From: a virus
Taxonomy: Duplodnaviria; Caudoviricetes
DNA length: 64,000 bases
IMG/VR virus record: IMGVR_UViG_3300020411_000002
Reading direction: 5' to 3' (one strand)
In this document: positions 1,336-59,187 of the stretch, piece by piece
Position numbering within the stretch: the first letter of the stretch is position 1
Layout of the letters: every line of letters begins with the position of its first letter
The notes under the pieces: generated by a model
Database searches by the model: none
What the model saw: only the letters and a program-made list of their open reading frames with translations
Told to the model about the DNA's origin: nothing
Translations under genes and position numbers: made by a program

Positions 1336-2510
1336 CTTACTTTCGTTCCTTTATAAATATTGCTTAGAGCTTCACTACCTTGCAGCACACGACAGGTTAG
1401 CTCCCACTGTATAATAGTTCTTTCGCTAGTGGTATTACGCGGTGCGTCAGTTACTTTCATAGTGTAGCTTCTACTCGGAATAACAAGCAAATCGCTATTT
1501 CGAATCATACCTATTTTAGCAGGTGCAATAGCTGTTAACTGACCTATGGTAGAACTACGCATGTAATCTAACGTTTCAGCTTCTTGTGATAGATTTATAT
1601 CAATCGGGTCTGCGTCCTGCTTAAAGAATACTGAAACGTGTGTAAACGATGTGCCTATAACGTATACATCTATTTGCTTTCCACGCGCATCGTTTAATGC
1701 TGCTTGTGTTAAACGACGGTTTCCATTTGGGTCTACGTACAAGAATGCATCTACGAATATATCTAAGTTATCGCGTACTGAATACTTTGCTTCTTTAAAA
1801 TACTTGGGCACGTTTATTCTAAAGTGACAATACGCATCGTCAGACAAAGCTTCTATCAATGCAGGCTTTTGGGAGAAATCTACGTTGTAACTTAATGAGT
1901 TTAGTATCTCGTAGTTTGTCAAAACATAATGCGTATGGTTAAGAACATTATACGCCGGTACTATTCCTCGACTATAGCAGATGCCGCAGTTAACTGTAGT
2001 TCCACCGAACAGCGTATCTTCAAACGCTTCTATGCTTTCACCGTCGTCTGCTTCTACTATATCATAGCCTGCATCGCCTGATGCTAGTATATCAGCGGCT
2101 TCGAATTCTTTTATTTGCTCTTCTTTAAGCGTGTTACTTCTATTCTTTCCTATCTGCGCTACAGCACTTTGACCGGGTTCTCCGAAAATATCATCGTCGT
2201 GATCGCCAGCCATTTCAAATGTAATACCATCGTTTTGTGAACCAAATGGTACTAAGTCTGGGTCTTCTCCCGGTCTATTTCCAGACTGATCTAGTTCGTC
2301 CATGATAGGAATCTTTTTACACGTACAAGGTCTGCCTGTATCACAACGTTTGAATATGACTGCATTCACGCTATCTACAGCTAGAGAGTTTTCTATCTGC
2401 TGATGGAAAGGAGCAATCGTTGCATCTAAACGTTTTTGTGCTAGCTCACTTGTAAAGTTTTTTGCTTGACGCCTTCTACCGCGCCTCGCATTTTTAAGCC
2501 AATTGGACAT
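1332..2510 (-). CDS. Hypothetical protein, possibly virion structural/neck-type
   Basis: 392 aa with RBS GGAG; Cys pairs CTC and CGIC; function is only a recollection of jumbo-phage families. Confidence 0.4.
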   Translation of the reverse strand: MSNWLKNARRGRRRQAKNFTSELAQKRLDATIAPFHQQIENSLAVDSVNAVIFKRCDTGRPCTCKKIPIMDELDQSGNRPGEDPDLVPFGSQNDGITFEMAGDHDDDIFGEPGQSAVAQIGKNRSNTLKEEQIKEFEAADILASGDAGYDIVEADDGESIEAFEDTLFGGTTVNCGICYSRGIVPAYNVLNHTHYVLTNYEILNSLSYNVDFSQKPALIEALSDDAYCHFRINVPKYFKEAKYSVRDNLDIFVDAFLYVDPNGNRRLTQAALNDARGKQIDVYVIGTSFTHVSVFFKQDADPIDINLSQEAETLDYMRSSTIGQLTAIAPAKIGMIRNSDLLVIPSRSYTMKVTDAPRNTTSERTIIQWELTCRVLQGSEALSNIYKGTKVR

Positions 2511-2577
2511 ACTATTCTCCTTTATTGCTATTAAATTAACAATCTACTAATTTAAAACAAAATAAAGAAAAACTATT

Positions 2578-3159
2578 ATGAAAACCTTCACAGTATTGAG
2601 TTGTGACCCAGGCACAAAGAATTTTGCTGCCGCCTTAGTTACAGGTACTCTGCATGATGATGGTCGTTTGAAGTTTAAAATTCACGGCACACATCTTATG
2701 CAAAGCACTGTATTAAAACTAACTGAAAGTATTGGATTTGCTTTACGTGGATTCACTGATGAAATAGAATCTCTTTTGAACGACCAAGGTCTTGTGCCTG
2801 ATGCTTTGTTTATGGAGAGATTCCAAAGTAGAGGAATGGGTGGAACTACCATAGAATGTATAAACTTTATGATAGGTAGTTTGGTAAGTAAGTACTACGA
2901 AGATACAGAGATTGCTTTGCTTACTGCCGCCACATGGAAGAACAGGGCTAATGCTAAGATAGACTTTAAAGGTAGTTATACCAAGTATGGTCTAAATAGA
3001 GTTGCCTCAAATAAAACCCCTCACGAACTAGATGCTGCAATGATTGGTATATATGCTTGCTATAAGCACTTTGAGCTTGAACCCTTCACTTGCTTTAGTC
3101 CAGAAAACTTTGATAGATTCATGGAATATTTTCAGACCGTACCAACCCTAAAAGTGTAA
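2578..3159 (+). CDS. ruvC: RuvC-like Holliday junction resolvase
   Basis: LSCDPGTKNFA N-terminal motif, FMERFQ, and C-terminal HELDAAMIG acidic triad. Confidence 0.75.
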   Translation: MKTFTVLSCDPGTKNFAAALVTGTLHDDGRLKFKIHGTHLMQSTVLKLTESIGFALRGFTDEIESLLNDQGLVPDALFMERFQSRGMGGTTIECINFMIGSLVSKYYEDTEIALLTAATWKNRANAKIDFKGSYTKYGLNRVASNKTPHELDAAMIGIYACYKHFELEPFTCFSPENFDRFMEYFQTVPTLKV

Positions 3160-8548: not shown

Positions 8549-8556
8549 TGTAAATA
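8549..8556 (+). promoter_or_regulatory. TGTAAATA phage promoter motif ahead of the modification operon
   Basis: AAAAACTGTAAATAC about 45 nt before ATG 8599. Confidence 0.55.
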
Positions 8557-8598
8557 CCCAGTAGATAAAACTGGGTATTTTTATTTCTGAGGTAAATA

Positions 8599-9396
8599 AT
8601 GACTGCAAAAACTCGTACACGCACGGCTAAGAAACCCGTTCCTAGAAAAACTAGTAAAGCTCGTAGCGTAAGTCCAGACGATATTACAACTACAACTACG
8701 GCAGAAGAGCCTGCTCGTAAACGTAAATTCAAAGCAAAGAAAGTTCGTGTTAATTCACGCACTGCTAATCGCTCTGGTGATTGGAAGTTGAAAGACTTAA
8801 AAGGTGCTGAATATAATCCACGTATGATTACAGACAGACGCCTTGATAACATGGGTGATTCATACGAGCGCTTTGGTGACTTGTCTGGTATCGTATTTAA
8901 TAGACGTAGTGGTAAGCTGGTATCTGGACACCAACGCGTAGCTAACATCGAGAAGCGCGGCTATCCTACTGCTGTTAAAACTAATCCAACTAAAGACGAT
9001 CATGGTACAGTAGAAGAAGGCGTACTAGCTGTTAAGACAGACAAGGGCGTTATCCGTATTCCAATGCGTGTTGTTGATTGGGAAGACCAAAAAGCAGAAA
9101 TGGCAGCAAACGTTGCAGCCAACGCACACGGTGGTGAGTTCGATAAACAAAAGCTAAGCAAGCTAATGGCAGACTTAGAAGTTATCGAGGGTGGATTCGA
9201 AATTGGTTTAATTGGTTTAGATGAAGTTTCTATTCGCTCACTTCCAAAGTTGCCTGATCGTCCGTCTTCTAGTTCTGAGTCAAGCTCTGGTTCTAGCGGT
9301 TCAAGTAGTCGTCCTGACGGCTTTGATGCGTATGATGAAAGTTCTTTCGATGAACAGCTACAGCACTGCTGTCCTAAATGTGGATTTGAATTCTAA
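8599..9396 (+). CDS. ParB N-terminal domain protein with C-terminal zinc ribbon
   Basis: AEYNPRMI, LVSGHQRV, ANVAANAHGGEFD, terminal CPKCGFEF; the ParB type often found beside phage MTases. Confidence 0.8.
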   Translation: MTAKTRTRTAKKPVPRKTSKARSVSPDDITTTTTAEEPARKRKFKAKKVRVNSRTANRSGDWKLKDLKGAEYNPRMITDRRLDNMGDSYERFGDLSGIVFNRRSGKLVSGHQRVANIEKRGYPTAVKTNPTKDDHGTVEEGVLAVKTDKGVIRIPMRVVDWEDQKAEMAANVAANAHGGEFDKQKLSKLMADLEVIEGGFEIGLIGLDEVSIRSLPKLPDRPSSSSESSSGSSGSSSRPDGFDAYDESSFDEQLQHCCPKCGFEF

Positions 9397-10463
9397 TGAA
9401 GTTACCAGCCAAGTTACCTACTAAAATTCCTACTATTCGGGAAATAAATAAATCTAAGAAATATTTTTTAGGTATTTCTACTTTCTCTGGTGCTGGTGGT
9501 TCTTGTACTGGTCACAAAATGGCTGGTATCGACATTCAGTATGCAAACGAATTTATACCTGCTGCAAAAGAGGTTTATGAGATTAATCATAACTCTTTTT
9601 GTGACGGCTCTGACATTCGTACTGTTAAAGGAAAAGACATTCTTAAACACTTGGGAATTAAGAAAGGTCAACTTCCTTTCATGGACGGTTCGCCTCCATG
9701 TGCATCGTTCTCTACTTCTGGTAAACGTCAAGAAGATTGGGGACAAGAAAAGAAGTACAGTGATACTACTCAACGTACTGATGACCTGTTCTTTGAATAC
9801 GGAAGACTTGTTTCTGAAATTGAACCTTGGGTTTTCTTAGCTGAAAACGTATCTGGTTTAATCAAAGGTGCTGCTCGTGGATACTTCAAAGAGATTACTA
9901 CTTCATTAAAACAGTGCGGTCGTAAAGGTTATACTGTTCAGTGTTTTAGAATTAATGGAAGTTGGTTAGGTGTTCCTCAGAATCGTGAACGTATGATATT
10001 TATCGGCGTTCGTAATGACTTGGTAAAAGCTGCTGGTGTTAAACCTATCGCTCCTATGCCACTTGATAGACAAGTAGCTGTAAAAGAAGTACTTCCACAT
10101 ATTGCTTACATCAAAACTAAAGATGGTGATATGATAAAGTACGTTCCAGCCGATAGACCGTATCCAACTATTATGGCAAGCGATTACAACACTAGTCACA
10201 CTGCACTATTTAGTTCAGGTGGATTTGTAGAAGACAAGAAAGGCACTCAGCGTAAGATGACTGTAAAAGAACTCAAACGCATTTGTACTTTCCCTGACGA
10301 TTATGAAATCACTGGTAGCATTGCTCGTAAGTGGGAGAGACTAGGTCGAAGCGTACCTCCTCTAATGATGTATCACATTACACGTTCTGTAATTGATGGT
10401 ATATTAATTCCAATTGCAGAGCATAAGAAGTTAGATTATACCAAAGGACCTGTTCATGGATAA
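9396..10463 (+). CDS. C5-cytosine methyltransferase homolog, predicted cytosine carboxymethyltransferase
   Basis: Motif I FSGAGG, IV GSPPC, VI AENV, VIII PQNRER; motif X reads GRSVPP instead of GNSV. Confidence 0.9.
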   Translation: MKLPAKLPTKIPTIREINKSKKYFLGISTFSGAGGSCTGHKMAGIDIQYANEFIPAAKEVYEINHNSFCDGSDIRTVKGKDILKHLGIKKGQLPFMDGSPPCASFSTSGKRQEDWGQEKKYSDTTQRTDDLFFEYGRLVSEIEPWVFLAENVSGLIKGAARGYFKEITTSLKQCGRKGYTVQCFRINGSWLGVPQNRERMIFIGVRNDLVKAAGVKPIAPMPLDRQVAVKEVLPHIAYIKTKDGDMIKYVPADRPYPTIMASDYNTSHTALFSSGGFVEDKKGTQRKMTVKELKRICTFPDDYEITGSIARKWERLGRSVPPLMMYHITRSVIDGILIPIAEHKKLDYTKGPVHG

Positions 10464-11229
10464 AGACAACGTAGTTCCACCTGCTAAGTGGGAGTTCAAC
10501 GAAGAAGTAGCTAAATGTTTTGACGATATGTTACAACGGTCAATTCCAAGTTATGAGACAATGCGTTCTCTTACTTGGAACATCATGCATAACTACCATG
10601 TTAAGCAACAGAGCCATGTGCCTGACTTTAACCTGAATCACTTTAGAGGAAGATTCAAGCTTGGTAGCATTCTAGACTTAGGTGCTAGTCGTGGTGAAGC
10701 ACTAAGACCTTTTATTGAATCAGGTCACTATAGCTGTGATGCAATCGAAGTGTCTGAACCTATGCTAGATGTGCTTAAAGAACTGTACGGCGAGTCTGAC
10801 AATGTTAGAATTCACAACATAGATATGCGTAATCCTGAGTTTATTCAGCGCAATACTGATGGTATGCGAAAATCTTTTACCGGCATTCTTAGCATTCTAA
10901 CTATTCAGTTTACGCCTATCGAATATCGTATGGATATTCTACAGGAAATATATGACAGCTTATCAGAGGGCGGTATGTTTATCTTTGTAGAAAAAGTTCT
11001 TGGTAGCGGTGCGCAAATTAACCGTGTAATGGTCAACACTTACCACGACTCTAAGAATGGTAATGGATATAGTCAAGAAGATGTAGAACGTAAGCGCCTA
11101 TCTTTAGAGGGTGTTCTAGTTCCACAAACAGCTAGTGCTAACGAAGAAATGTTAAAGTTAGCAGGCTTCAAACATGTTGACTGTTTTTATAGACACTTAA
11201 ACTTTGCTGGATGGGTGTGTATTAAATGA
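10456..11229 (+). CDS. cmoA: Carboxy-S-adenosylmethionine synthase (CmoA-like)
   Basis: WEFNEEVA.CFDDMLQRSIPSY, LDLGASRG, LTIQF, FVEK, RKRLSLEGV, AGF...LNF follow E. coli CmoA motifs in order. Confidence 0.85.
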   Translation: MDKDNVVPPAKWEFNEEVAKCFDDMLQRSIPSYETMRSLTWNIMHNYHVKQQSHVPDFNLNHFRGRFKLGSILDLGASRGEALRPFIESGHYSCDAIEVSEPMLDVLKELYGESDNVRIHNIDMRNPEFIQRNTDGMRKSFTGILSILTIQFTPIEYRMDILQEIYDSLSEGGMFIFVEKVLGSGAQINRVMVNTYHDSKNGNGYSQEDVERKRLSLEGVLVPQTASANEEMLKLAGFKHVDCFYRHLNFAGWVCIK

Positions 11230-12203
11230 CTAGGAAACGCAAAGCAAGTAAAAGCAAAGACACCGTTATGGTAGACGGTGTTCCTCACGAAGACATTGAG
11301 GGTATGTTAGTTCCTGCGCACTGGAATGAAAACAACAAAAAGAATTGTCGTAAAGTTCGTTCTAGCGTAAAGAAAATGGCAAGCGCACCACCCGACTTAC
11401 GCCATGCTCTTATGGAATCACTATCTTTGTTTGAAGACGATTGCGGTGTTGCATGTTCTGGTGGACTAGATAGTCAAGCAATACTTTGGTCGCTCATTGA
11501 CTTAGGTAAAAAGCCCACTGTATTTAGTGTGTGCTTCGAACATCAGATTAGCTCTGACTTCTTATCTGCTAAACAAACTGCTGAATATTTTGGTCTAGAG
11601 TTTGTTCCAGTGTTCATACCTTATGACGCCGACAAGTACTACAAGTTCCTAAAGTATATAATTCATAAGCAAGGAATTACCAGTAAGCCTAGTATAGAAT
11701 GTTTGTATCCAATGATGCTTCTAATCAAAGAAGCAGAAAAGCGTTGCAGCTATTTAGCTTTTGGGCATGGTGGGGATATCTACTACAATCTAGCGCGTAA
11801 AGCAGAAATGTTTGGTAAAGATATTTTGTACGAATCTAGACTAGCTCAGTTTAGAGGTGGTGGAATTACTTACGGCCCTAAAGGTCAAGAAACTATTCTG
11901 ACTAGATATGCGTTGAAGAAAGGCATTTTTGCAATGTTCCCTTATCTGCTAGCTAACGTGTATGCTCAGTTCCAGACGATGACTACTTGGGAAGAAACCA
12001 ACAAACCTCAAAAGCGAATCGTCAGAGAAACATGGCCTCAACACTTAAAGCCATGTAAAGTTAAGAACCACTCAAACATGCAGTTAGGTGATGGGGACAT
12101 ATCTGGAAATCTCGGTAACTTGATTCTAGATAGTGAGTATAATGTAGGCAATTGGAAAAGCCAAGTTGGGGTCTACAATCACATTGCAAAACAAAAAGTG
12201 TAA
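11226..12203 (+). CDS. Asparagine synthetase-like ATP-dependent amide ligase lacking a glutaminase domain
   Basis: PP-loop ACSGGLDS; FGHGGDIYY (cf. SGEGADELFGGY); MFPYL; 325 aa with no Ntn Cys1. Confidence 0.75.
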   Translation: MTRKRKASKSKDTVMVDGVPHEDIEGMLVPAHWNENNKKNCRKVRSSVKKMASAPPDLRHALMESLSLFEDDCGVACSGGLDSQAILWSLIDLGKKPTVFSVCFEHQISSDFLSAKQTAEYFGLEFVPVFIPYDADKYYKFLKYIIHKQGITSKPSIECLYPMMLLIKEAEKRCSYLAFGHGGDIYYNLARKAEMFGKDILYESRLAQFRGGGITYGPKGQETILTRYALKKGIFAMFPYLLANVYAQFQTMTTWEETNKPQKRIVRETWPQHLKPCKVKNHSNMQLGDGDISGNLGNLILDSEYNVGNWKSQVGVYNHIAKQKV

Positions 12204-12206
12204 ATA
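12199..12206 (+). promoter_or_regulatory. TGTAAATA phage promoter motif
   Basis: AAAAAGTGTAAATAG overlapping the stop codon of the preceding gene. Confidence 0.55.
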
Positions 12207-12319
12207 GTAGTTCTGTAAATATTAATTTTATAGAGCAAGCGAGTTAGACAAAGTACCTGCTCGTTTTTAATATCATATCCCAAGAGAAGGGTTTTCTCTA
12301 ACCAACTAAGGAGATCATC

Positions 12320-12352
12320 ATGTTGATGAACAGTGGCGGCGCATTCCAATAA
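12320..12352 (+). CDS. Micro-ORF, peptide MLMNSGGAFQ (copy 1)
   Basis: AAGGAG RBS, 6-nt spacer, ATG, 10 codons, TAA. Confidence 0.6.
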   Translation: MLMNSGGAFQ

Positions 12353-12416
12353 GCGCGTAATCATTCGGGCCCTCGCTTAAAAGAGGTTTTTAACTTTCTT
12401 AACTAAGGAGATCATC

Positions 12417-12449
12417 ATGTTGATGAACAGTGGCGGCGCATTCCAATAA
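12417..12449 (+). CDS. Micro-ORF, peptide MLMNSGGAFQ (copy 2)
   Basis: Identical to copy 1, including the RBS. Confidence 0.6.
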   Translation: MLMNSGGAFQ

Positions 12450-12487
12450 GCGCGTAATCATTTGCACTATACGTAGTGTACTTTAAT

Positions 12488-12513
12488 AAAGGGGACTTCG
12501 TGTCCCCTTTTTT
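12488..12513 (+). terminator. Rho-independent terminator
   Basis: AAA-GGGGAC-TTCGT-GTCCCC-T6. Confidence 0.85.
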
Positions 12514-12571
12514 GCGTTCAATTGTCAAAACTGTAAAGAGACATATATCATTCTTAACTTAACTGGCAACT

Positions 12572-13111
12572 ATGAATCTGTTCAAAGTCTTACACGACCA
12601 AGTTAAAAAGAGTCTTCTTCAAGAGACTAAGCTTAGCGAGGACGAACGCCGTTTATTTCAATGGCAGTTCTTATCTAAAATAGGAAACGTTAACTATCTT
12701 GTTGGTAAAGGTGGTGCTAACACTATGTTCTATAGAGTTGGCGACGTAGGCGATCCTAGTTACTGCTATCCAGAAGAGATTCTTGCTATAATTAAGTCTT
12801 GGTCTAAATCCGAATACTCTGCTTATACTATCGATGTTGATGTGATGGGAACATGTGTAGCAGGACCGTTTGTTAAACTGGAAGAAGCAAAAGACTTTAT
12901 TCCAGATGATTCAAAACGCCCGCACTATATTATCGGTCATAAAACAGATGGTAGCTCAGAAAAAGTATTCATTCTGAAAAAATCGTTACAAGGTCTATCT
13001 TGGGTCAAGTATGATGCTGGACTTGAAACTGCTCCAACTAAGCGAGTACGTAAACGTAAACTCGTAAAGTCTACTTCTGCTAAGCCGAGAAGAACACGCA
13101 AGCATAGGTAA
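12572..13111 (+). CDS. Hypothetical protein with Arg/Lys-rich C-terminus
   Basis: 179 aa; preceded by CTGTAAAGA motif variant. Confidence 0.7.
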   Translation: MNLFKVLHDQVKKSLLQETKLSEDERRLFQWQFLSKIGNVNYLVGKGGANTMFYRVGDVGDPSYCYPEEILAIIKSWSKSEYSAYTIDVDVMGTCVAGPFVKLEEAKDFIPDDSKRPHYIIGHKTDGSSEKVFILKKSLQGLSWVKYDAGLETAPTKRVRKRKLVKSTSAKPRRTRKHR

Positions 13112-13116
13112 ATATT

Positions 13117-13698
13117 ATGGCTGCTCGTAAACCACGCAAATCAGGAATTGCCCGTTCTGGTACAACTGGAACTAAACGTTCTTCTACTCGATCTTCACGC
13201 TCTAAGAATTTCAGAGTATTACCCCTAGTAGAAAACGTAGTTGAACAACCGCCAGAGACGGACTTGTCTCGAAGAGGTTTGAGTCTTCGTAGACTTCTAA
13301 TGAATACACCACGTATTAGAAAAGAAGTAGGTCAGTACGAAGTTACAATTAAAAAGTTTAAGAAGCAGAAAACAAAGACAGGTCTAACTGCTCTTACTGC
13401 AATTGCAAACCACAAAGACCCGTTCATGCCTAACAAGACTGTTAAAGATCGTCCAGTTTATATTATTGGACTTGATTCACAAACTAAGCCTGTTACTAAA
13501 CAAAAGCGCGTGATGGTATCTTGTAATTGCGAAGACTTTGTTTTTCACGGTGCTGAATATGCGTGTGCATTACATGGTGCTGCTAGAATCATTTATGGTA
13601 ACGGCGAACCTGCTCACATGACTAATCCGCACAACGTTCCTTTTCTTTGTAAACATTTAGTTGGATTTTCTCACTACTGTTCTCAGAAAGGTTTATAG
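13117..13698 (+). CDS. SWIM zinc-finger protein
   Basis: VSCNCEDF...CKHL (CxC-xn-CxH). Confidence 0.75.
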   Translation: MAARKPRKSGIARSGTTGTKRSSTRSSRSKNFRVLPLVENVVEQPPETDLSRRGLSLRRLLMNTPRIRKEVGQYEVTIKKFKKQKTKTGLTALTAIANHKDPFMPNKTVKDRPVYIIGLDSQTKPVTKQKRVMVSCNCEDFVFHGAEYACALHGAARIIYGNGEPAHMTNPHNVPFLCKHLVGFSHYCSQKGL

Positions 13699-14611: not shown

Positions 14612-15670
14612 ATGGCTTTAGTTACTAATCCAGATGAAAACCTTTCTGGTGGACAAATCGAACAAATTCTGGATACCCTTCTATATGAGGTTTTACGCCC
14701 TCTTGTGTATCACAGTACTGTCTTCGATACTCAGATTGTGTATGCATTAAGTTTCATATCGAGAAACAAAAAGCGTAAAATCTCAACGTCAAACTCCCGT
14801 GAAGAAAGCATAGACTACCTATCTCGTGCCTTGATTACTGATGACTTGGATGAAAAGTTCGAGTATATTAAAAAGTCAAAGCTAGAGCGTTCTATGATAT
14901 ACGTATTTGCTACTAACATACTTAGGCACTATTACGATTCTTTCTTTACTTTGTATCAAAACTTTTTAGAGTCAGAGCCTGGAGATAGGCTTGTTCTTAA
15001 ACGAAGACTCAAAGTTATACAAGATAGTCTAGCGTGTCCTACGCGTAGTGACCTGTTTATCTTATTGAATGCAATGCATGATGCTACCAAGCAATATAAT
15101 ACATACGTAGAAAGTATTGTAGCTCAGTACATAAAGATATGCAGCAAGCAGGCTAGTTTCTTTGTTGATACAAATCCAAACAATAACTACGACAGAAAAG
15201 AAGTTAGGCAAAACTTTTTAAAGAACGTAGTAACTGCACTGAATAAATACAACAGTGAACACGGTGCTTTAACCTCGTACATAAAGTTTTGGTTTTTGAA
15301 TGCTCAAACTTGTAGCAACTCAGACCATGAGTACGGTATTGCATATCGTATACCACCACAGCATAAGAAAAAACTTGCTACTGGTGATACAGCTTCTGGA
15401 TTCGATATAAACTTTAGTGTCTCATTAGATGCAACTGTTACGGATGATGAAGGTGAAGAAGTTACTCTATACAACAAAGTAGAAAGTAACGAAACCGTAG
15501 ATTCCAGTCTTGAACATTCTAGATTCTCTGAACTACTTTGTACGCTTGCAAAGAATGTAGACCCTCATGGAATTGGAAGACTGACTCTCGGCATCGATGA
15601 ACACTTTTCAGATGCTGACCTAAATAAAATGAAAAAGCACATGATAAAGCAACATTTACTAAAAGTGTAA
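14612..15670 (+). CDS. Divergent sigma70-family transcription factor
   Basis: ALNKYNSEHGALTSYIKFWF resembles region 2.3-2.4; SVSLDATVTDDEGEEVTL resembles region 3.2. Confidence 0.55.
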   Translation: MALVTNPDENLSGGQIEQILDTLLYEVLRPLVYHSTVFDTQIVYALSFISRNKKRKISTSNSREESIDYLSRALITDDLDEKFEYIKKSKLERSMIYVFATNILRHYYDSFFTLYQNFLESEPGDRLVLKRRLKVIQDSLACPTRSDLFILLNAMHDATKQYNTYVESIVAQYIKICSKQASFFVDTNPNNNYDRKEVRQNFLKNVVTALNKYNSEHGALTSYIKFWFLNAQTCSNSDHEYGIAYRIPPQHKKKLATGDTASGFDINFSVSLDATVTDDEGEEVTLYNKVESNETVDSSLEHSRFSELLCTLAKNVDPHGIGRLTLGIDEHFSDADLNKMKKHMIKQHLLKV

Positions 15671-15704: not shown

Positions 15705-16967
15705 ATGGCTCGTGGATTTGATAATATTAATCCAAACGCAAACAGTAGAGGAGACAAGCTTAAACCTGAAGAAATTTGGGACTTATTTAAGTTTACTGAC
15801 CAAAGTGGTTATGTCTCTGTTCGCTTTTTGCCAACCGATATCTTACCAGTTAAAACACACTGGATTAAAATCTTAGCAGGCAAAGATAAGAAAGAAATCA
15901 AGATTCCAAAAATTTGTATCAGCTTTGATCCAGATAACGAAGCAGTTGCATTAGATGGTACTGACTGTCCTTATTGCAATCTATCACAAGGTCAAGACGG
16001 TGCGTGTCAAACTTCTACTGCTTATTATGCAAACGTTATAGTGCGTGACTTGCAAGAAGATATGCCGCGTAAGCTGCCGCCACACACTAAGAGTGAAAAA
16101 GAAACTGGATACAAAGATATCAAGTCTCGCTCTTGGACTCCTGTTCGAGTTGTACGTTTACCAGCAGGTCTTGCGGGTAAGATTCAAGAAATGCGTGAGC
16201 GTAACAAAGACAAGAAAGGCAACATGTATCCTGTATCTCATGAAGAGTACGGAATTGACATTGCTATCAAGTTTGATGACAGTAAATCAGGTACGGACAA
16301 GTATCAAATCGATAAAGAAGAGCGCTCTCCTTTAGACGACGAAGAGTTAGACTATCTAACTTATGATTTAAGCGTTGAGTGTATTGATATGCTTGGTCGT
16401 GAAAGTCAGGAACAGGCTGACACCGAATTTAAACGTCTTGATATTGTCGGTGAAGATGAAATCGAAGATGATGAAGACGATGAAGAAGATGATTTACCTC
16501 GTCGTAGTAAGAAAGGCAGTAAAGGTCGTCGCCGTGCATCAGTAGATGACGAAGATGAAGAAGATGAAGAAGATGATGAAGAAGATGATCTTCCACGTAG
16601 TCGTAGAGGTAAAAAGTCTTCTAGCCGTCGCTCTCGCCGCAGTTCAATTGATGAAGACGATGACGAAGATGAAGACGAAGACGAAGACGAAGAAGAGTCT
16701 CGTAGCTCTCGCCGTAGTAAACGTTCTTCTTCACGATCTAGCCGTCGCAGCCGTCGCAGTGAGCCAGAAGATGACGAAGATGAAGACGAAGATGATGAAC
16801 CTCGTTCTAGACGTAGTAAACGTTCTTCGACCAAGACTTCTAGCAGTAGAAGACGACGCGCACCTGTAGACGAAGAAGAAGATGAAGATGATGAACCTCG
16901 TTCTCGCCGTTCTCGTACATCTTCTAAGACTCGTTCAAGCTCTCGTTCTCGTTCTCGTAGACGATAA
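15705..16967 (+). CDS. T4 gp32-like single-stranded DNA-binding protein with long D/E and R/S tail
   Basis: VRFLP, HWIK, CPYC, YYANVIVR motifs; directly upstream of RecA. Confidence 0.7.
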   Translation: MARGFDNINPNANSRGDKLKPEEIWDLFKFTDQSGYVSVRFLPTDILPVKTHWIKILAGKDKKEIKIPKICISFDPDNEAVALDGTDCPYCNLSQGQDGACQTSTAYYANVIVRDLQEDMPRKLPPHTKSEKETGYKDIKSRSWTPVRVVRLPAGLAGKIQEMRERNKDKKGNMYPVSHEEYGIDIAIKFDDSKSGTDKYQIDKEERSPLDDEELDYLTYDLSVECIDMLGRESQEQADTEFKRLDIVGEDEIEDDEDDEEDDLPRRSKKGSKGRRRASVDDEDEEDEEDDEEDDLPRSRRGKKSSSRRSRRSSIDEDDDEDEDEDEDEEESRSSRRSKRSSSRSSRRSRRSEPEDDEDEDEDDEPRSRRSKRSSTKTSSSRRRRAPVDEEEDEDDEPRSRRSRTSSKTRSSSRSRSRRR

Positions 16968-19843
16968 TGCCAGCACGAACTACAAAGGCGGCTGAGACTA
17001 CAACTCGCCGTCGCCGTCGTTCTACTAGCGTAGCAGCGACCGAGACAACAGGTGTGAGCAAGCCTAAATCTGCTCGTAGTACCAAGCAGGAAGTAGTAGA
17101 AAACAATAAAGAGTTTTTTGATATCGGTCAAATGCTTGATGAACTTCAAGATGAAACTGATAAGAAATACGGACTTGTAAGCTCAGTACTTGAACGCTCT
17201 AGTGACCGAATGAGTACAGGTATTTTATCTTTGGACTTGTTGCTATATGGTGGTATTCAGCCAGGCGGTTGGTATACTATTTACGGTCCTGAGCAAAGTG
17301 CAAAGTCTACTCTTGCTATGACTATTCTTGCACAAGCGTTACATGCACGAATGACTAAAGGTTCTAAGTTTGCTTGTGGTATCTTTGACTACGAAGGTTC
17401 TGTAGATGAAGAATACACTGGTAACATTATCAAGTCATTGGGCATTAAAGGTAATGCAGCGCAAATCTTTGGTGTACGTGATGATGACGGTGGTTGGGAA
17501 ATTCCTCCTCTTGCTCGTTATTACTCACACGATGTTGGTGATGACTTCTTTAAAGCTCTAGCCAAAATTCGCCGTGGACTTCCAGACAAACAAACGATTA
17601 ACGGCGAGCCGTGTTATCTATTTGAACACACGAAAGCTAACAAGTCTAAGTTTGCTGGAATGTACGATACCAAGTACTTGTCTCGTAACAACAAGATTAA
17701 AGTACCTGCACCAGACGGCTTCATGCAAGGTTTATACTTGTGTGACTCTTATCCAGCTATGTTACCAGATGGTCTTGATGACGATGACCGTAACAGTGGT
17801 ATGGCAGAGCAAGCTCGTATGTTCAGTGAGGGTATCAAAAAAGTTAAAGGCGGTATGCGTAAGAAAGCAATGACTGTAATTGGTATTAACCAGTTGCGTC
17901 TACGTCCAGCGACTATGTTTGGTAATCCTGAATACGAACCGTGTGGTGAAGCGTTGAAGTTTTTCTGCTTCCATCCTACAACAAACCTCTTTACTAAAGA
18001 TGGTCTTGTAACAGGACAGGAGTTTTACGATTCTGGAAGCATGTCTAAGATTCTAGGATCTAAAGGACTTGAGAAACCTACTATCTTTGATAGTACGGGC
18101 TACAGTCAGATTAGTTGTCTAACTACTGAACTTGGTAACTTTATCAAAGCTAAACCTGGACATAGAACACTCTCTATTCAAAATAGAGGCTGTATGCCTG
18201 AATGGACAAAGTTGTCCAGCTTTACAGGCACTGTAGATCGTTATGTTCCTGTTAAAGTAGGTAGTGATATTTGGTCAGATACTGATGCACTATTAGATTT
18301 TGAATCTTTTTCAAAGTATGATAATGATGTTTGTATATCCAGTGTTCCTGAATCAATGTCACCTAAGTTAGCGTATGTTCTAGGCTCTTTATGCGGCGAT
18401 GGTCATGTTCCAGGTACTGGTGTTATTCATTTTGTTACTCAAGACGAAGATACAATGGACTTCTTCTTAGAATGTTTCGAGGAATCGTTTTCATTATCAG
18501 GTCTTGAGTACAGACAGGTAGATAATAAGTTTGAATTCAGCTTATCTAGTCGTAGGATTTCTAACTTCTTAGGTTACTTAGGTTCTACAGGTACTTCCCG
18601 AACTAAGTCTGTTCCTTGGGCAGTCAGAACCTCTACTAAGAAGTCATGTTTGATGTTCTTACGAGGCTTGTTTGACTCAGACGGTAATGTAGGCCCTAAA
18701 GGTATAGGTCTTTCAACAACATCTAAATTGCTTTCCGAGCAAGTACACTTAATGTTGTTGAACTTGGGATGTATTGCTAGACTGAAACGTAAAGACCATG
18801 ATTACCATGAGCATAAAGAACTGAATGCGGTTTATAACATAAGCTGTAGTGGTTCAAATGCTGTACGTTTGTATGAATCCGTAGGTTTAACTTCCGCTCG
18901 AAAAGCAGAAGCCTTTGAATCTAAAAGTACTGGCGATCATACTCATAATGAAATGTATTCTCTTGATCTAATACCTTTTGATGTTTTACCTACTGGTAGA
19001 CAGAAGTTTCAAAAGCTTGAGGGTCTTTTGGCGGAATGCAAAGGAAGAGGAGCTTATTATCGCATTAGCCGCTTTACAGAGGATTGGTTTGATGAAGCAT
19101 TTGGTTTTGTTGAGACTTTACGTACCGAGCATGAACGTGAAAAGTATCAAAACTTTCTTATTACACTAAGTAAGTTTATAGACTACACTAGCGAAAATTC
19201 TTTGTTCTGGACAAAAGTTGTTTCTGTAGACCATAACCTAGAGCGTTCGATGACCTATGATGCTAACATGCCTAAAACACATTCAATTGTGACTAACGGT
19301 ATTGTTTCTCATAACTCCGATGTTCGAATCAAGTCTACTCCACGCAGCACAGGTCCTAGCGGTTTCGTTGTTAATAAAGGAATCGTTGAAGAGCCTAGCG
19401 TTACTGGAAGAGGAAAAGACACTTACCGCTTCTTGCGTTTAAAGACTACTAAGAACAAACTTGGTGGTATGCCACAGCAAGAATGTTGGGCACGTATCTG
19501 GATATCTGATGGTACTGGTACTGCTCGGGGTCTTGACCCAGCGTTTGATACGTTTGAGTATCTTTCACTTCTTGGAATGGTTAGCGGAAACAAAAACAAT
19601 TACAAGTTTAGTGAAGATTGCCCACTTCACGGTGCTAAGAAAATCGATTGGATTACATTTAAGAAACTAGTTCTTTGTTCTCCAAAAGAAGTCAAAGCAA
19701 TTTGTGAAGAGCAAGGTATTAAACCTGTTAAGATTCGCGATTGGTGTCAAAAGCGTTGCGCTAACGGAAGTCATCCTAAGTTGTTCAAAGAAATCTTGGT
19801 GTCTGCTGCTACAGGTGGTAAGAAGTCTGACGATGATGAATAA
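16967..19843 (+). CDS. recA: RecA/UvsX recombinase interrupted by an intein
   Basis: STGILSLDLLLYGG, YGPEQSAKST Walker A, DSYPAM, INQLR, GEALKFF|SDVR, KTTKNK. Confidence 0.9.
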   Translation: MPARTTKAAETTTRRRRRSTSVAATETTGVSKPKSARSTKQEVVENNKEFFDIGQMLDELQDETDKKYGLVSSVLERSSDRMSTGILSLDLLLYGGIQPGGWYTIYGPEQSAKSTLAMTILAQALHARMTKGSKFACGIFDYEGSVDEEYTGNIIKSLGIKGNAAQIFGVRDDDGGWEIPPLARYYSHDVGDDFFKALAKIRRGLPDKQTINGEPCYLFEHTKANKSKFAGMYDTKYLSRNNKIKVPAPDGFMQGLYLCDSYPAMLPDGLDDDDRNSGMAEQARMFSEGIKKVKGGMRKKAMTVIGINQLRLRPATMFGNPEYEPCGEALKFFCFHPTTNLFTKDGLVTGQEFYDSGSMSKILGSKGLEKPTIFDSTGYSQISCLTTELGNFIKAKPGHRTLSIQNRGCMPEWTKLSSFTGTVDRYVPVKVGSDIWSDTDALLDFESFSKYDNDVCISSVPESMSPKLAYVLGSLCGDGHVPGTGVIHFVTQDEDTMDFFLECFEESFSLSGLEYRQVDNKFEFSLSSRRISNFLGYLGSTGTSRTKSVPWAVRTSTKKSCLMFLRGLFDSDGNVGPKGIGLSTTSKLLSEQVHLMLLNLGCIARLKRKDHDYHEHKELNAVYNISCSGSNAVRLYESVGLTSARKAEAFESKSTGDHTHNEMYSLDLIPFDVLPTGRQKFQKLEGLLAECKGRGAYYRISRFTEDWFDEAFGFVETLRTEHEREKYQNFLITLSKFIDYTSENSLFWTKVVSVDHNLERSMTYDANMPKTHSIVTNGIVSHNSDVRIKSTPRSTGPSGFVVNKGIVEEPSVTGRGKDTYRFLRLKTTKNKLGGMPQQECWARIWISDGTGTARGLDPAFDTFEYLSLLGMVSGNKNNYKFSEDCPLHGAKKIDWITFKKLVLCSPKEVKAICEEQGIKPVKIRDWCQKRCANGSHPKLFKEILVSAATGGKKSDDDE
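17966..19315 (+). mobile_element. 450-aa LAGLIDADG homing-endonuclease intein in RecA
   Basis: Starts CFHP after ALKFF; ends NGIVSHN before Ser; LAGLIDADG blocks LGSLCGDG and LRGLFDSDG. Confidence 0.92.
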
Positions 19844-46458: not shown

Positions 46459-47478
46459 ATGAACAAAATTGGATTCGCCTGTAAATTTGTTTATCCTGAC
46501 CGAAGTCTGCCTCTAAAGCAGATTAACGAAATTGAACGGCAGTACAATATGAAATCTACTACCGTTAAATGGTTACGCGATAATAAAAAGCAGGCACATG
46601 GAAAGCTAGAAGAGATTTGCCTCTACAACGCACAGTGTATACTTAACTTAGTCAGTATGGTAAGTAGCTGGCCTGTGTCGCTAAGAATGGTACGTATAGG
46701 GAGTGATGTACTCCCTGTATACACCCATGCTGAATTTCGTGACTTCTACAAGAAAGCTAAATTCATGGATAAAGTAGAGTCACTACTCAGTGAAGCTGGG
46801 CATATCGCCCGAACTAAAAACGTCAAGCTATCTATGCACCCCGGTCAGTTTTGCGTTCTTGCATCTGACAAACCCCACGTACTAACAAACTCTATAGAAG
46901 AATTTGAATATCATGTTGATTTAATTCGCATGATGGGCTTCGGAAAGTCTAAACTTGATTTTAAATGTAATGTACACTTGTCTGGTGCAGGTGGAGCGGA
47001 AACATTCAAGCAGACTTACAAGAAACTTTCAAATGAGGCTAGAAGGGTTATCACTCTAGAGAACGACGAATTCAGTTCAGACCTGAATGACTTGTTGCCT
47101 CTATCCAAACTCGTAGGAATTGTTTTAGACTTGCACCACTATTGGGTCTATAATGAAAAGTACATTGAGTCCAACGACCCGCGATTGAAAATAATCGAAG
47201 ACAGTTGGCAAGGTGTTACTCCTACCATCCACTACTCCTATAGCAGAGAAGATTACGTATCTGATGTATTCGGGCAGAGACCTGATATGCGTACACTTCT
47301 GTCCCATGGAACTCCCAAAACCAAACTACGCGCACATAGCGACTTCTATCCAAACGCTACAGTTAACCGTTATGTCCTTTCTTTTCTCAAACGCTTTGAT
47401 ATCATGTGTGAAGCAAAAGCTAAAAACCTAGCTAGCTGGCAATTGTACGCTCAGGCACAGCAGGTTAAGTACTTATAA
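46459..47478 (+). CDS. uvsE: UV-damage endonuclease UvsE/UvdE
   Basis: IGFACK, SMHPGQF.VLAS, EFEYH, LENDE, LDLHH, RAHSD, MCEAKAKNLA. Confidence 0.9.
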   Translation: MNKIGFACKFVYPDRSLPLKQINEIERQYNMKSTTVKWLRDNKKQAHGKLEEICLYNAQCILNLVSMVSSWPVSLRMVRIGSDVLPVYTHAEFRDFYKKAKFMDKVESLLSEAGHIARTKNVKLSMHPGQFCVLASDKPHVLTNSIEEFEYHVDLIRMMGFGKSKLDFKCNVHLSGAGGAETFKQTYKKLSNEARRVITLENDEFSSDLNDLLPLSKLVGIVLDLHHYWVYNEKYIESNDPRLKIIEDSWQGVTPTIHYSYSREDYVSDVFGQRPDMRTLLSHGTPKTKLRAHSDFYPNATVNRYVLSFLKRFDIMCEAKAKNLASWQLYAQAQQVKYL

Positions 47479-57141: not shown

Positions 57142-59187
57142 ATGGCAATTAGAAAAAGACGAACCAGCCCCGCGAAGACCCCTGCCAAGTCTCAATCGTA
57201 TGACGAAGATAGCATTAAGTTCCAAGAAGGTCTTAATGGTATTCGTGCCAATCCATCTATGTATTTAGGTGCGCTTGGTAATCCTATGGTATTCCGAATG
57301 GTAAAGGAAGCTGTAGATAACGTGTACGATGAATTTGCAGCAGGTCGTAACACAGGTGCTGAGATTATTGTTAATCCAAAAGACAACTCGTATATTATTG
57401 CTGACTACGCTCAAGGTATTCCAGTTGGATTAAAGCAGACCGAACACGAAGGCAAAGTTAGTGCAATGACTTTGATTCTTACCAAAGTTCATGCTGGTGG
57501 TAAGTTTGATGATACTGCATATAAAACATCTAGTGGTACTCACGGTGTTGGTATCGCAGCCGTTAACGCCGCATCTAGTGTTATGGAAGTTTGGACTAAG
57601 CGTGAAAAAGTTTGGTATGTGCAAACGTTCAAGAAAGGTGTTGCTGATGCCAAAGTTAAAAAGCTTGGTACACGAGCACCTGCCGCATTCAAGAACTTTG
57701 ACTTAGCAGAAAAAACTATCAGCAAGTATGGAACTATTGTTAGATTCATACCAGACCAAACCGTTGTGTCCGAAGACGCTGCTCGTGGTTCACGTAAAGT
57801 AGCAGAAGACAAGTTGACTGTAGCAAAGCTTGAACTTGGTACAGCCGGTAGCTGGTTACGCGACTTAGCAATGCTTAACCCAGGCTTCCACATTACTTAC
57901 ACTTGCGTTGGTAAAGGTTCTAAGAAGTTTGTGAACACTAAAGGTCTAGACTGGTTAGTGTTGAACAGAATCAAAGAAGCAGAAGCACAAGCTGTATCCC
58001 GTAAACCTTTCATGTACGAAGATGAAGACCTGTCTTGTGCTATCACTTGGACTGACCAAGCAGACGATCATTTATTTACTTCGTATGTTAACAGTTCACC
58101 TACAGTAGAACATGGTACTCACGTTGAAGGTTTCCGTTCTGCTCTACAAAAAGCTATCAAGCCGCATCTTACTGATCGTGACAAGAAAGCAAAGTTCACT
58201 GTTCATGATTTGATGATAGGTGCTTGCGGTGTGTTGAACTTTAAAATGAACTCTGCTCAGTATAGTTCACAGGTTAAAGATAAGCTAGTATCAAAAGTTG
58301 CTAAAGACGTTGAAACAAAGCTTGAAGAATCTTTATTCGAATGGTTCAAAGATAATCCGCGTATTGCAAAGAACATTATCAAGAAAGCTACTACTGCTAA
58401 CAATGCCCGCGAATCTCTAAAGAAAGTCATGAAGTCTATGACAGAAGTTCGTAAGAAGTCTCGCGGTGTTTTGCCTGAGAACTTAACAGAAGCACCAAAC
58501 GTTAAACCTGACCAACGTGAAATATACATCGTTGAGGGGGACTCTGCTGGTGGTACTGCAAAGAATGCTAGAAACTCTAATCAAGAGATATTGAAAATGT
58601 CTGGTAAGCCTGCCAACGCCCTCAATATATCTTTGGATAAGCTGTTAAACTCGCAAGCAGTACTAAACATTATTATTTCGTTAGGTATTGACCCAGGCTC
58701 TCTAGACATACAAGCTGACAGTCCTAAGTTTAGCTCTGATAAGTTACGTTGCCAACGTGTTTACTTGCTCTCTGACCCAGATCCAGACGGTGCTCACATT
58801 AACGTATTGCTTTTGTGTTTCTTTTTCCGCTTGCTACCAGACTTTATAAAAGAAGGTCGATTGTATTGCGTAGAAGGTAAACTTTACTCTGCTCTATACA
58901 AAGGAAAGCTTTATTCTGGTGACACGTTTGATGAATGTTATAGCTCGATGCCACAAACAGAAGAAGCTAAGAAAGCAATAACACGTATCAAAGGATGGGG
59001 AGAAGTTAACCCAGATATGCTTGACCCAATCGCTTTCGATCCAGATACAAGACTGGTACGTCAAATATCTTGGAACGATGACCCTGCAAAAATTGCTTAC
59101 TTCCGAAACATTGCTGCCGAGTCTGCGGCTGAGAAGCGTAAACTTCTTGGACTTAAAGAATCGCGTCCAGCTTTAGAAGAAGCTTAG
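57142..59187 (+). CDS. gyrB: Type IIA topoisomerase B subunit (GyrB/ParE-like)
   Basis: EAVDNVYDE, HAGGKFD, SSGTHGVG GHKL motifs; IVEGDSAGG; SDPDPDGAHI; IKGWGE. Confidence 0.92.
   Translation: MAIRKRRTSPAKTPAKSQSYDEDSIKFQEGLNGIRANPSMYLGALGNPMVFRMVKEAVDNVYDEFAAGRNTGAEIIVNPKDNSYIIADYAQGIPVGLKQTEHEGKVSAMTLILTKVHAGGKFDDTAYKTSSGTHGVGIAAVNAASSVMEVWTKREKVWYVQTFKKGVADAKVKKLGTRAPAAFKNFDLAEKTISKYGTIVRFIPDQTVVSEDAARGSRKVAEDKLTVAKLELGTAGSWLRDLAMLNPGFHITYTCVGKGSKKFVNTKGLDWLVLNRIKEAEAQAVSRKPFMYEDEDLSCAITWTDQADDHLFTSYVNSSPTVEHGTHVEGFRSALQKAIKPHLTDRDKKAKFTVHDLMIGACGVLNFKMNSAQYSSQVKDKLVSKVAKDVETKLEESLFEWFKDNPRIAKNIIKKATTANNARESLKKVMKSMTEVRKKSRGVLPENLTEAPNVKPDQREIYIVEGDSAGGTAKNARNSNQEILKMSGKPANALNISLDKLLNSQAVLNIIISLGIDPGSLDIQADSPKFSSDKLRCQRVYLLSDPDPDGAHINVLLLCFFFRLLPDFIKEGRLYCVEGKLYSALYKGKLYSGDTFDECYSSMPQTEEAKKAITRIKGWGEVNPDMLDPIAFDPDTRLVRQISWNDDPAKIAYFRNIAAESAAEKRKLLGLKESRPALEEA

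Follow-up and report, generated by a model that had tools for sequence, protein, structure and literature searches.

What might a bacteriophage do with a cytosine C5-methyltransferase homologue, a carboxy-S-adenosylmethionine (Cx-SAM) synthase homologue and a synthetase-type amide ligase that are encoded in one operon? This question is raised by the four-gene block at positions 8599-12203 of IMG/VR record IMGVR_UViG_3300020411_000002 (Duplodnaviria; Caudoviricetes), of which we analysed a stretch of 64,000 nucleotides (hereafter, the window). A preliminary description of the DNA had proposed that Cx-SAM is made, that 5-carboxymethylcytosine (5cxmC) is written on DNA with it, and that the carboxylate is then converted to an amide. 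The same pathway has been proven for Synechococcus phage S-B43 (PMC12783734), and the window proteins carry the sequence features that characterize it. Comparisons of sequence and fold, from which we established family assignments, diagnostic residues, operon coupling and conserved synteny, indicate that the block is very probably a jumbo-phage version of this published CmoA-CmoX-CmoY DNA hypermodification system, with an amine that may differ from that of S-B43.

The S-B43 system was demonstrated biochemically by Yang et al. (Nat Commun 2025, published in December 2025; PMC12783734); the preliminary description had correctly pointed to a cyanophage report of carboxymethylcytosine. CmoA of S-B43 (SpCmoA) makes Cx-SAM. 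Its CmoX (SpCmoX) uses only Cx-SAM and writes 5cxmC at GC sites; Arg350 contacts the carboxylate, and the R350N variant is inactive. CmoY (SpCmoY) then joins glycine using ATP, and the glycine amide is present in virion DNA. The accompanying survey, in which CmoX was defined by an SPPC motif plus R350, recovered 5,615 CmoX, 4,257 CmoA and 2,251 ligases, with 1,660 ParB-domain neighbours, and it reported ligase clusters with other pocket residues, which hence probably use other amines (PMC12783734). In the literature on CmoX or Cx-SAM in phage DNA modification, we found no later work on jumbo-phage ligases.

The four open reading frames (ORFs) of the window operon all lie on the + strand (Table 1). 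Their coordinates proved to be exactly those first noted, and in the ORF listing they overlap by 1, 8 and 4 nt, in agreement with the translational coupling claimed for them. A hairpin search of the window found no + strand terminator-like sites inside the block. In a natural variant seen in a metatranscriptome run, third codon positions account for 13 of the 15 listed differences in the ParB-like gene, 10 of 12 in the methyltransferase gene and 7 of 10 in the ligase gene. This bias points to purifying selection, which would therefore be maintaining all three frames.

The second gene encodes a C5-methyltransferase homologue (PF00145, 3.2e-46) whose best solved relative is SpCmoX (8YF3, 5e-53), followed by the HaeIII (2.7e-22) and HhaI (about 1e-15) enzymes. 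Its SPPC motif, at residues 99-102, aligns with S95-C98 of SpCmoX. Ordinary methyltransferases have G-N-[AS]-V in motif X (IGNAVP in HaeIII); the window protein has LGRSVPP and SpCmoX has VGRMVPP, so that Arg318 occupies the position of SpCmoX R350 and HhaI N304. The residues that contact cytosine, E150-N-V (ENV, 150-152) and Q195-N-R197-E-R199 (motif VIII), are invariant between the window protein, SpCmoX and the homologue in Pseudomonas phage PaBG. Every sequence feature of the published CmoX definition is present in this putative CmoX. A basic residue at the motif-X Asn also allows Cx-SAM use in engineered M.MpeI N374K (cited in PMC12783734), although that enzyme is CG-specific and its Lys was engineered, whereas the Arg of the window protein is natural.

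The third gene product matches the CmoA family TIGR00740 (1.2e-34) at 120.1 bits. The curated NCBIfam cut-off is 193.3 bits, and the shortfall is a point against the proposed pathway; the proven SpCmoA itself scores only 115.6 bits, and the low score therefore need not speak against CmoA function. Its best PDB matches, E. coli CmoA (4GEK) and YecO (1IM8), align over the whole length. Arg214, which had been singled out as the counterpart of the E. coli Arg needed for Cx-SAM formation, does align with 4GEK chain residue 213, which is native Arg199. In the E. coli enzyme, this residue forms a salt bridge with the Cx-SAM carboxylate (PMC3663124). The SAM-binding residues Tyr33 (= Tyr39) and D-L-G-A-S (= Asp62-x-Gly64-x-Ser66) are present, and Asn90 and Asn132 of E. 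coli CmoA are replaced by Val and Ile. The Arg199 column holds Glu in the proven SpCmoA, with Lys alongside. In a CmoA homologue at positions 2429-3142 of record L089, encoded beside a ligase 51% identical to that of the window, it holds Ala, with Lys one residue on. Phage CmoA enzymes thus do not strictly need Arg199.

In E. coli, CmoA chemistry and Arg199 serve tRNA cmo5U formation together with CmoB. Here, the acceptor enzyme is instead a DNA C5-methyltransferase homologue, and CmoB was not found in the scans that we made: there is no match to TIGR00452 in the complete genomes of PaBG and of the relative G001 (described below), and none among the larger window ORFs, a scan that was not exhaustive. 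To this extent, the earlier statement that the window lacks CmoB holds. One could nevertheless suppose that an ordinary orphan 5-methylcytosine methyltransferase happens to stand beside a CmoA that serves tRNA cmo5U during infection, its neighbours being functionally unrelated; tRNA modification is the classical role of CmoA, and the PF00145 and TIGR00675 matches are generic for C5-methyltransferases. We consider this scarcely plausible. SpCmoX, with Arg at the motif-X Asn, takes only Cx-SAM; CmoB is missing from two complete relatives and from the ORFs scanned; ARAGORN found no tRNA genes in the window; and the genes, besides being translationally coupled, are found together in jumbo phages and cyanophages alike. 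PADLOC returned generic methyltransferase matches in the window and no restriction partner, and a restriction-modification pair was rejected for want of a nuclease partner.

Co-occurrence of methyltransferase, CmoA and AsnB-like ligase genes was to be expected from the preliminary description, and neighbourhood comparison found it in PaBG, in L050/G001 and in other relatives. The ligase is linked to both CmoX and CmoA in the window, in L050, L093 and L009/L010, and in PaBG. L050/G001 (IMGVR_UViG_3300028829_003504), a complete genome of 262 kb, is the closest relative overall (identity of 53% for ParB, 60-61% for CmoX, 57-59% for CmoA and 44% for a fifth conserved gene). Its cluster has the order and the slot of that in the window, upstream of genes for a sigma factor, SSB and RecA, but its ligase, only 35% identical, is directly preceded by a DUF1611 gene, and there is no micro-ORF. 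PaBG (PaBG_00176-00180, KF147891) has the same five families on one strand, in the order ParB-like protein, C5-methyltransferase, CmoA, hypothetical protein and ligase, with identities to the window of 46-48% for the ParB-like protein, 53% for CmoX, 42% for CmoA and 36% for the fifth gene. It differs in having the fifth gene between CmoA and the ligase, in a ligase of a different clade (29% identical) and in the lack of a micro-ORF after it. We found no biochemistry of the PaBG cluster in the literature searched.

The window and Phage NCTB (LT598654, 258 kb, from surface water) have backbone genes of 55-83% identity in a common order of primase, PD-(D/E)XK nuclease, variable slot, sigma factor, SSB and RecA. 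Neither CmoA nor CmoX was found anywhere in the NCTB genome. We favour the reading of the block as a module of the CmoA-CmoX-CmoY type in part because the same genes occur in the same order in PaBG and in the complete L050/G001 genome, but are absent from the syntenic NCTB.

Compared with S-B43 itself, the window likewise has the three enzyme families clustered, a CmoX with SPPC and the Cx-SAM-binding Arg, and a ligase without a glutaminase domain; ParB-domain neighbours such as that of the window were already part of the survey of Yang et al. However, S-B43 has the order CmoA-CmoY-CmoX and no ParB, and the window proteins are distant from their counterparts (CmoX 34-40%, CmoA about 28% and ligase 28-29% identical, the last belonging to another clade). 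S-B43 is a T4-like cyanophage, whereas the window comes from a marine jumbo phage with the backbone of NCTB, PaBG and the Erwinia jumbo phages. A micro-ORF unit and the fifth gene are extras of the window relative to S-B43.

The fourth gene product matches phrog_26038 (7.6e-62) and PF00733 (1.2e-7). It has the PP-loop SGGLDS at residues 78-83 and matches TIGR01536 at profile positions 218-365 only, which is the synthetase half; the glutaminase domain is absent. An AlphaFold model (predicted local distance difference test, pLDDT, 88.8) had AsnB, human ASNS, beta-lactam synthetase and carbapenam synthetase as its top Foldseek matches (E 1e-9 to 1e-7), and PDB sequence searches with the protein returned nothing. 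The PP-loop and the AsnB-type fold of the predicted structure bear out the asparagine-synthetase-fold amide ligase that had been proposed. Word-index protein searches with this ligase turned up nothing beyond a 99% copy and a single relative at 51%. In IMG/VR, a close-relative search found none and an alignment-based search did find relatives; the ligase cluster representatives numbered about 700.

To place the ligase, we built a tree of 50 ligases with SH-aLRT (Shimodaira-Hasegawa-like approximate likelihood ratio test) support and compared residue conservation clade by clade; the residues of the glycine pocket are not named in the text of the Yang et al. supplement, appearing in a figure only. 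The window ligase falls in a clade (99% SH-aLRT) with those of L050, Erwinia phages Y3 and Yoloswag, Salmonella phage Sen-NF and two IMG/VR contigs, separate from both the PaBG clade and the SpCmoY clade. Its branch is long (1.11), and its exact place within the clade is uncertain. Five residues that are invariant in 30 SpCmoY-clade sequences (K60, R96, K97, R251 and R253) correspond to Ser114, Thr152, Ser153, Trp310 and Ser312 of the window ligase. A tblastn comparison with the S-B05 ligase gave 7e-15, the cluster threshold used by Yang et al. being 1e-56. By tree, tblastn and clade residues, then, the window ligase is not in the glycine-ligating SpCmoY cluster. All ligase clades have a common catalytic core: the PP-loop, K154, E158-C159, D184, R205, P261-Q262-K263, H282 and Q286.

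These comparisons bear on the simplest account of the ligase, namely that it is an ordinary orthologue that follows the same CmoA-CmoX step by adding glycine, as SpCmoY does, to give 5-glycylcarboxymethylcytosine. Glycine is the sole amine demonstrated for the ligase family, and the catalytic core is common to all clades. We nevertheless regard this account as unlikely, though a serious contender, in view of the separate 99%-supported clade, the Ser, Thr, Ser, Trp and Ser that stand in place of the five basic residues, and the other amines predicted for other ligase clusters (PMC12783734). The pattern of replacements is suggestive, though not proof, of an amine that differs from glycine, and an amine would probably not be bound here in the way that SpCmoY binds glycine. 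Between the window and L050, CmoX and CmoA are 57-61% identical and the ligase only 35%.

The same divergence of the ligase from SpCmoY (the 28-29% identity, the separate clade, the long branch and the replaced basic residues) weighs against equating the block with the published system. Two further points lie on that side of the balance. The Sen-NF record has a ligase of the window clade plus an oxygenase, without CmoA or CmoX, and because that ligase occurs without them, the clade might act on a substrate other than 5cxmC-DNA. The other point concerns the first gene, whose ParB-N identity had been asserted from the outset. In its favour, the protein matches phrog_620 (8.7e-27), and a profile of six homologues matches the N-domains of Spo0J (6SDK) and ParB (4UMK) at E 0.003-0.004, with NPR aligning with QPR and SGHQR with AGERR in the ParB boxes. 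Pfam does not recognise it: there is no PF02195 (ParBc) match even at E <= 1, and no Pfam match at all. The PHROGs match and the faint Spo0J/ParB N-domain profile match are weak but consistent indications of a ParB-like protein. A plasmid-partition role was rejected, there being no ParA and the context being that of a DNA-modification operon.

The Sen-NF record also raises the possibility that the ligase does not act on DNA at all but forms, with the micro-ORF that follows it, a peptide-amidating unit or one like those for ribosomally synthesized and post-translationally modified peptides, so that the DNA modification stops at 5cxmC. Evidence from the region downstream of the ligase bears on this. 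The 369-nt spacer 3' of the ligase contains a unit at 12199-12513, with two TGTAAATA motifs, two 62-nt repeats and a strong terminator (Table 1). Each repeat encodes a 10-residue peptide behind an AAGGAG ribosome-binding site, and the + strand of the window has just three AAGGAG-N4-8-ATG sites, of which these are two. On marine contigs whose ligase is 99% identical, the micro-ORF is single-copy and has Ser5 changed to Thr. In L089 (51% identical ligase), TAAGGAG comes after the ligase and, 7 nt further on, an ATG opens a 7-codon ORF (MQDRTGF).

Similar arrangements occur elsewhere in the clade. In Y3, Yoloswag and L009/L010, the ligase is followed by a 35-49-codon Asp-Pro-Ala repeat ORF with a similar ribosome-binding site, and then by a prolyl-hydroxylase-type oxygenase. 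The ligase of Y3 and Yoloswag, in the window's clade at 37% identity, thus resembles that of the window in having a small ORF with an AAGGAG-type site directly after it, but the Y3 and Yoloswag peptides are 35-49 aa long, consist of Asp-Pro-Ala repeats and come with an oxygenase, whereas the window peptide is 10 aa long, Pro-free and duplicated. Altogether, a micro-ORF with a strong ribosome-binding site lies 3' of the ligase in six lineages of the window clade. Pro-rich micro-peptides always occur with the oxygenase, and Pro-free ones (the window type and L089) never do. Micro-ORFs are missing from the PaBG and SpCmoY clades, where the ligase is directly abutted by the gene that follows.

Members of the window clade without a micro-ORF have an enzyme gene, encoding a DUF1611 protein or a pyridoxal phosphate (PLP)-dependent enzyme, abutting the ligase. 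The DUF1611 gene is directly upstream of the ligase in two lineages, L050 (4905-5981) and L093/L094 (L093 4238-5293); the PLP-dependent (PALP) gene abuts it upstream in one, L096 (5130-5996). In Y3-like phages, a 2-oxoglutarate (2OG) oxygenase of the prolyl-hydroxylase type lies downstream. This pattern fits a gene slot beside the ligase that varies across the wider clade and supplies the amine donor, with the DUF1611 and PLP enzymes as candidate suppliers of alternative donors. No homologues of the 2OG oxygenase of Y3 or Sen-NF, or of PaBG_00181, were found in the window.

For the peptide-ligase explanation, then, one can cite the Sen-NF gene content, the six lineages with micro-ORFs behind strong ribosome-binding sites, and the many carboxylates that AsnB-like enzymes adenylate. 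We hold it to be highly doubtful. The start of the ligase gene has a 4-nt overlap with the CmoA stop and lies in the operon that also contains CmoX; the ligase, CmoX and CmoA are linked in the window, L050, L093, L009/L010 and PaBG; the window peptide offers no Asp or Glu side chain for adenylation; and the Sen-NF record, at 108 kb and with unusual annotation, may be incomplete.

A CmoA-CmoX-CmoY module that does act on DNA might instead draw its amine from the micro-ORF peptide (MLMNSGGAFQ), used whole, as a fragment or as a scaffold product, which would amount to a peptide-derived DNA hypermodification. In its favour stand the six micro-ORF lineages of the clade, the pairing of Pro-rich peptides with the oxygenase, the enzyme genes that abut the ligase where a micro-ORF is lacking, and the Shine-Dalgarno sites of the window micro-ORFs, which are the strongest in the window. 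We regard this as doubtful too: about 45 GpC per kb would have to be filled if the specificity is GC, and the micro-peptides are dissimilar across lineages. Alternatively, the micro-ORF may be a leader peptide or a regulator of the downstream gene, and a functional link between micro-ORF and ligase is something that we infer. Expression of the unit is weakly indicated. In one metatranscriptome, assembled depth was 23-35 over the repeat versus 4-6 over the genes, but a DNA run had a depth of 137 over the repeat versus 78, arising from repeat collapse, and two other RNA runs showed no excess. The predicted RNA fold of 12222-12520 is mildly more stable than shuffled sequences (z -2.1), with no obvious attenuator. 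A 19-nt pattern of ribosome-binding site and start codon matched 33 unrelated genes and no micro-ORF copy in JGI metagenome contigs. A complex prediction for the ligase with the 10-aa peptide scored 0.01, was run without controls and is evidence neither way.

The scheme that we infer, in its catalytic activities, target motif and amine alike, follows the CmoA-CmoX-CmoY system. CmoA would convert SAM and prephenate to Cx-SAM. CmoX would flip out a cytosine, its Cys102 attacking C6, and transfer the carboxymethyl group to C5 while Arg318 holds the carboxylate of the cofactor, so that 5cxmC would arise in phage DNA after replication. The ligase would use ATP to adenylate the carboxylate, and an amine would displace AMP to leave an amide-linked hypermodified base. 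The ParB-like protein, and probably the product of the fifth gene, would be DNA-binding accessories. The modified base would most likely protect the genome from host restriction.

With the CmoA-CmoX-CmoY pathway, its ParB-domain neighbours and its wide spread all published in December 2025, the system itself is not new. The preliminary description had looked for novelty in the adduct, the ParB partner and the host range; the latter two were anticipated by the published ParB partner and wide phage distribution, and the adduct may yet be a different one because the window ligase lies outside the glycine-ligase clade. What is new here is that an abundant jumbo phage of marine origin carries the system, with a ligase of an uncharacterised clade that touches the amine question left by Yang et al., and with a Pro-free 10-codon micro-ORF, not accompanied by a hydroxylase, that sharpens the hypothesis of a peptide-derived adduct. 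If the adduct is new, it would extend natural DNA base chemistry and provide a new ligase for DNA functionalisation.

Beyond the four-gene block, the fifth gene of the cluster is homologous to PaBG_00179 (2e-26), which lies between CmoA and the ligase in that phage, and is 44% identical to the gene beside the ligase in L050. It occurs in 53 GenBank phage records (Erwinia 48, PaBG 2, Dickeya 2 and Yersinia 1), all in genera with CmoA records, and the counts from a CmoA search equal those of the fifth gene for Erwinia, Dickeya and Yersinia. NCTB lacks it, as do six Dickeya phages with the sigma factor but no CmoA. This distribution is suggestive of a gene that travels with the Cmo cluster, the carrier phages being related. 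A model of the protein (pLDDT 83) gave template-modelling (TM) scores below 0.4 in Foldseek searches of the PDB and the AlphaFold database (AFDB). VIA-align gave best Z values of 6.7 (YkuJ) and 6.1 (Pur-alpha), which are within the noise range and offer no convincing fold match, and ESM Atlas and PDB sequence searches returned nothing.

Lysine- and arginine-rich (K/R-rich) terminal tails that are absent from homologues, or at the opposite end of them, are a recurrent feature of this region. They lie at the N-terminus of the ParB-like protein (8599-8780; at the C-terminus in PaBG), the N-terminus of the ligase (11226-11290), the C-terminus of the fifth gene product (13040-13111) and the N-terminus of the product of ORF 13117 (13117-13215). 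Such tails could serve in non-specific DNA binding or packaging.

The preliminary description placed the operon behind a promoter. A TGTAAATA motif does lie upstream, with the first ATG of the operon 43 nt downstream of it, and the motif is enriched, with 14 copies in the window versus 4.8 expected (0 of 100 shuffles reach 14); its role as a promoter is that of a candidate. Its longer consensus, AAAA[GC]TGTAAATAGTA, is found mostly right behind gene ends, several times with a hairpin directly after it, and is a single base away from TATAAATA, the late-promoter sequence of T4. The phage itself encodes a sigma factor, at 14612-15670. We propose AAAA[GC]TGTAAATAGTA as a candidate promoter for this sigma factor or as a combined terminator-promoter cassette. 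No Rfam families were found in the window at gathering thresholds.

Table 1. Positions of the Cmo cluster genes and of associated sequence elements in the 64,000-nt window
Feature	Position	Strand	Remarks
ParB/Srx-like DNA-binding protein	8599..9396	+	265 aa; K/R-rich N-terminal tail, C-terminal CPKC motif
CmoX-type DNA cytosine C5-carboxymethyltransferase homologue	9396..10463	+	355 aa; putative catalytic Cys102, Arg318 at motif-X Asn
CmoA-type carboxy-SAM synthase homologue	10456..11229	+	257 aa; TIGR00740
CmoY-like ATP-dependent amide ligase (predicted), AsnB synthetase domain only	11226..12203	+	325 aa; PP-loop SGGLDS
Candidate phage-specific promoter element (TGTAAATA motif) ahead of the operon	8549..8556	+	motif over-representation
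Terminator-like hairpin and T-run closing the upstream unit, overlapping TGTAAATA	8552..8580	+	11-bp stem, then TTATTTCT
Two more TGTAAATA motifs, the first overlapping the ligase stop codon	12199..12221	+	motif search
Exact 62-nt repeat in two copies; in each, a 10-codon ORF begins after AAGGAG and a spacer of 6 nt	12304-12365, 12401-12462	+	MLMNSGGAFQ
10-codon ORFs MLMNSGGAFQ	12320-12352, 12417-12449	+	one per 62-nt repeat
Intrinsic-terminator-like hairpin, strong, closing the micro-ORF unit	12488..12510	+	9-bp stem, 5 GC pairs, T-run
Fifth conserved gene of the jumbo-phage cluster (phrog_23597), K/R-rich C-terminal tail	12572..13111	+	homology to PaBG_00179
AAAA[GC]TGTAAATAGTA intergenic copies	272, 3155, 5753, 8549, 12199, 12214, 19852, 47602, 47876, 54489, 60199		

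In NCTB, the slot of the Cmo cluster (9565-11160 of the record, L006) is occupied by a gene whose 531-aa product has a domain of the TGT (queuine tRNA-ribosyltransferase) family (PF01702, 1.5e-8). DpdA enzymes, by which 7-deazaguanines are placed in DNA, belong to this family, and the slot protein is a candidate DpdA-like 7-deazaguanine DNA-modification enzyme. That NCTB has a TGT/DpdA-like gene where the window has the Cmo cluster suggests that DNA-modification modules may be swapped at one locus of a shared backbone.

The window stretch is present in marine or estuarine DNA runs, at least 15 of them, and in 5 metatranscriptome runs, and near-identical ligase genes occur on marine metagenome contigs. 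When the operon was compared by megablast with 50,697 phage records, no match emerged; GenBank has no phage that is nearly identical. One DNA run that is not a metagenome covers 91% of the stretch at about 78x, with contigs of up to 234.7 kb, and a culture of the phage, or of a host that carries it, may therefore exist.

GGCC occurs 13 times in the window, where base composition would predict about 90, a 7-fold depletion; CCNGG occurs 31 times, and there is a slight enrichment of GC dinucleotides (ratio 1.19). The HaeIII-type site is strongly avoided despite the putative GC-directed cytosine modification. Lastly, other genes of DNA metabolism were noted in the window. A RecA/UvsX-like recombinase (16967-19843) is interrupted by about 450 inserted aa that include LAGLIDADG and intein-splicing domains, and its NCTB homologue (503 aa) aligns only to window positions 17054-17965 and 19316-19840. 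A UvdE-type UV endonuclease (46459-47478; PF03851, 2e-40) and a two-subunit type II topoisomerase (57142-59187 and 60238-61818) are ordinary jumbo-phage DNA-metabolism genes.

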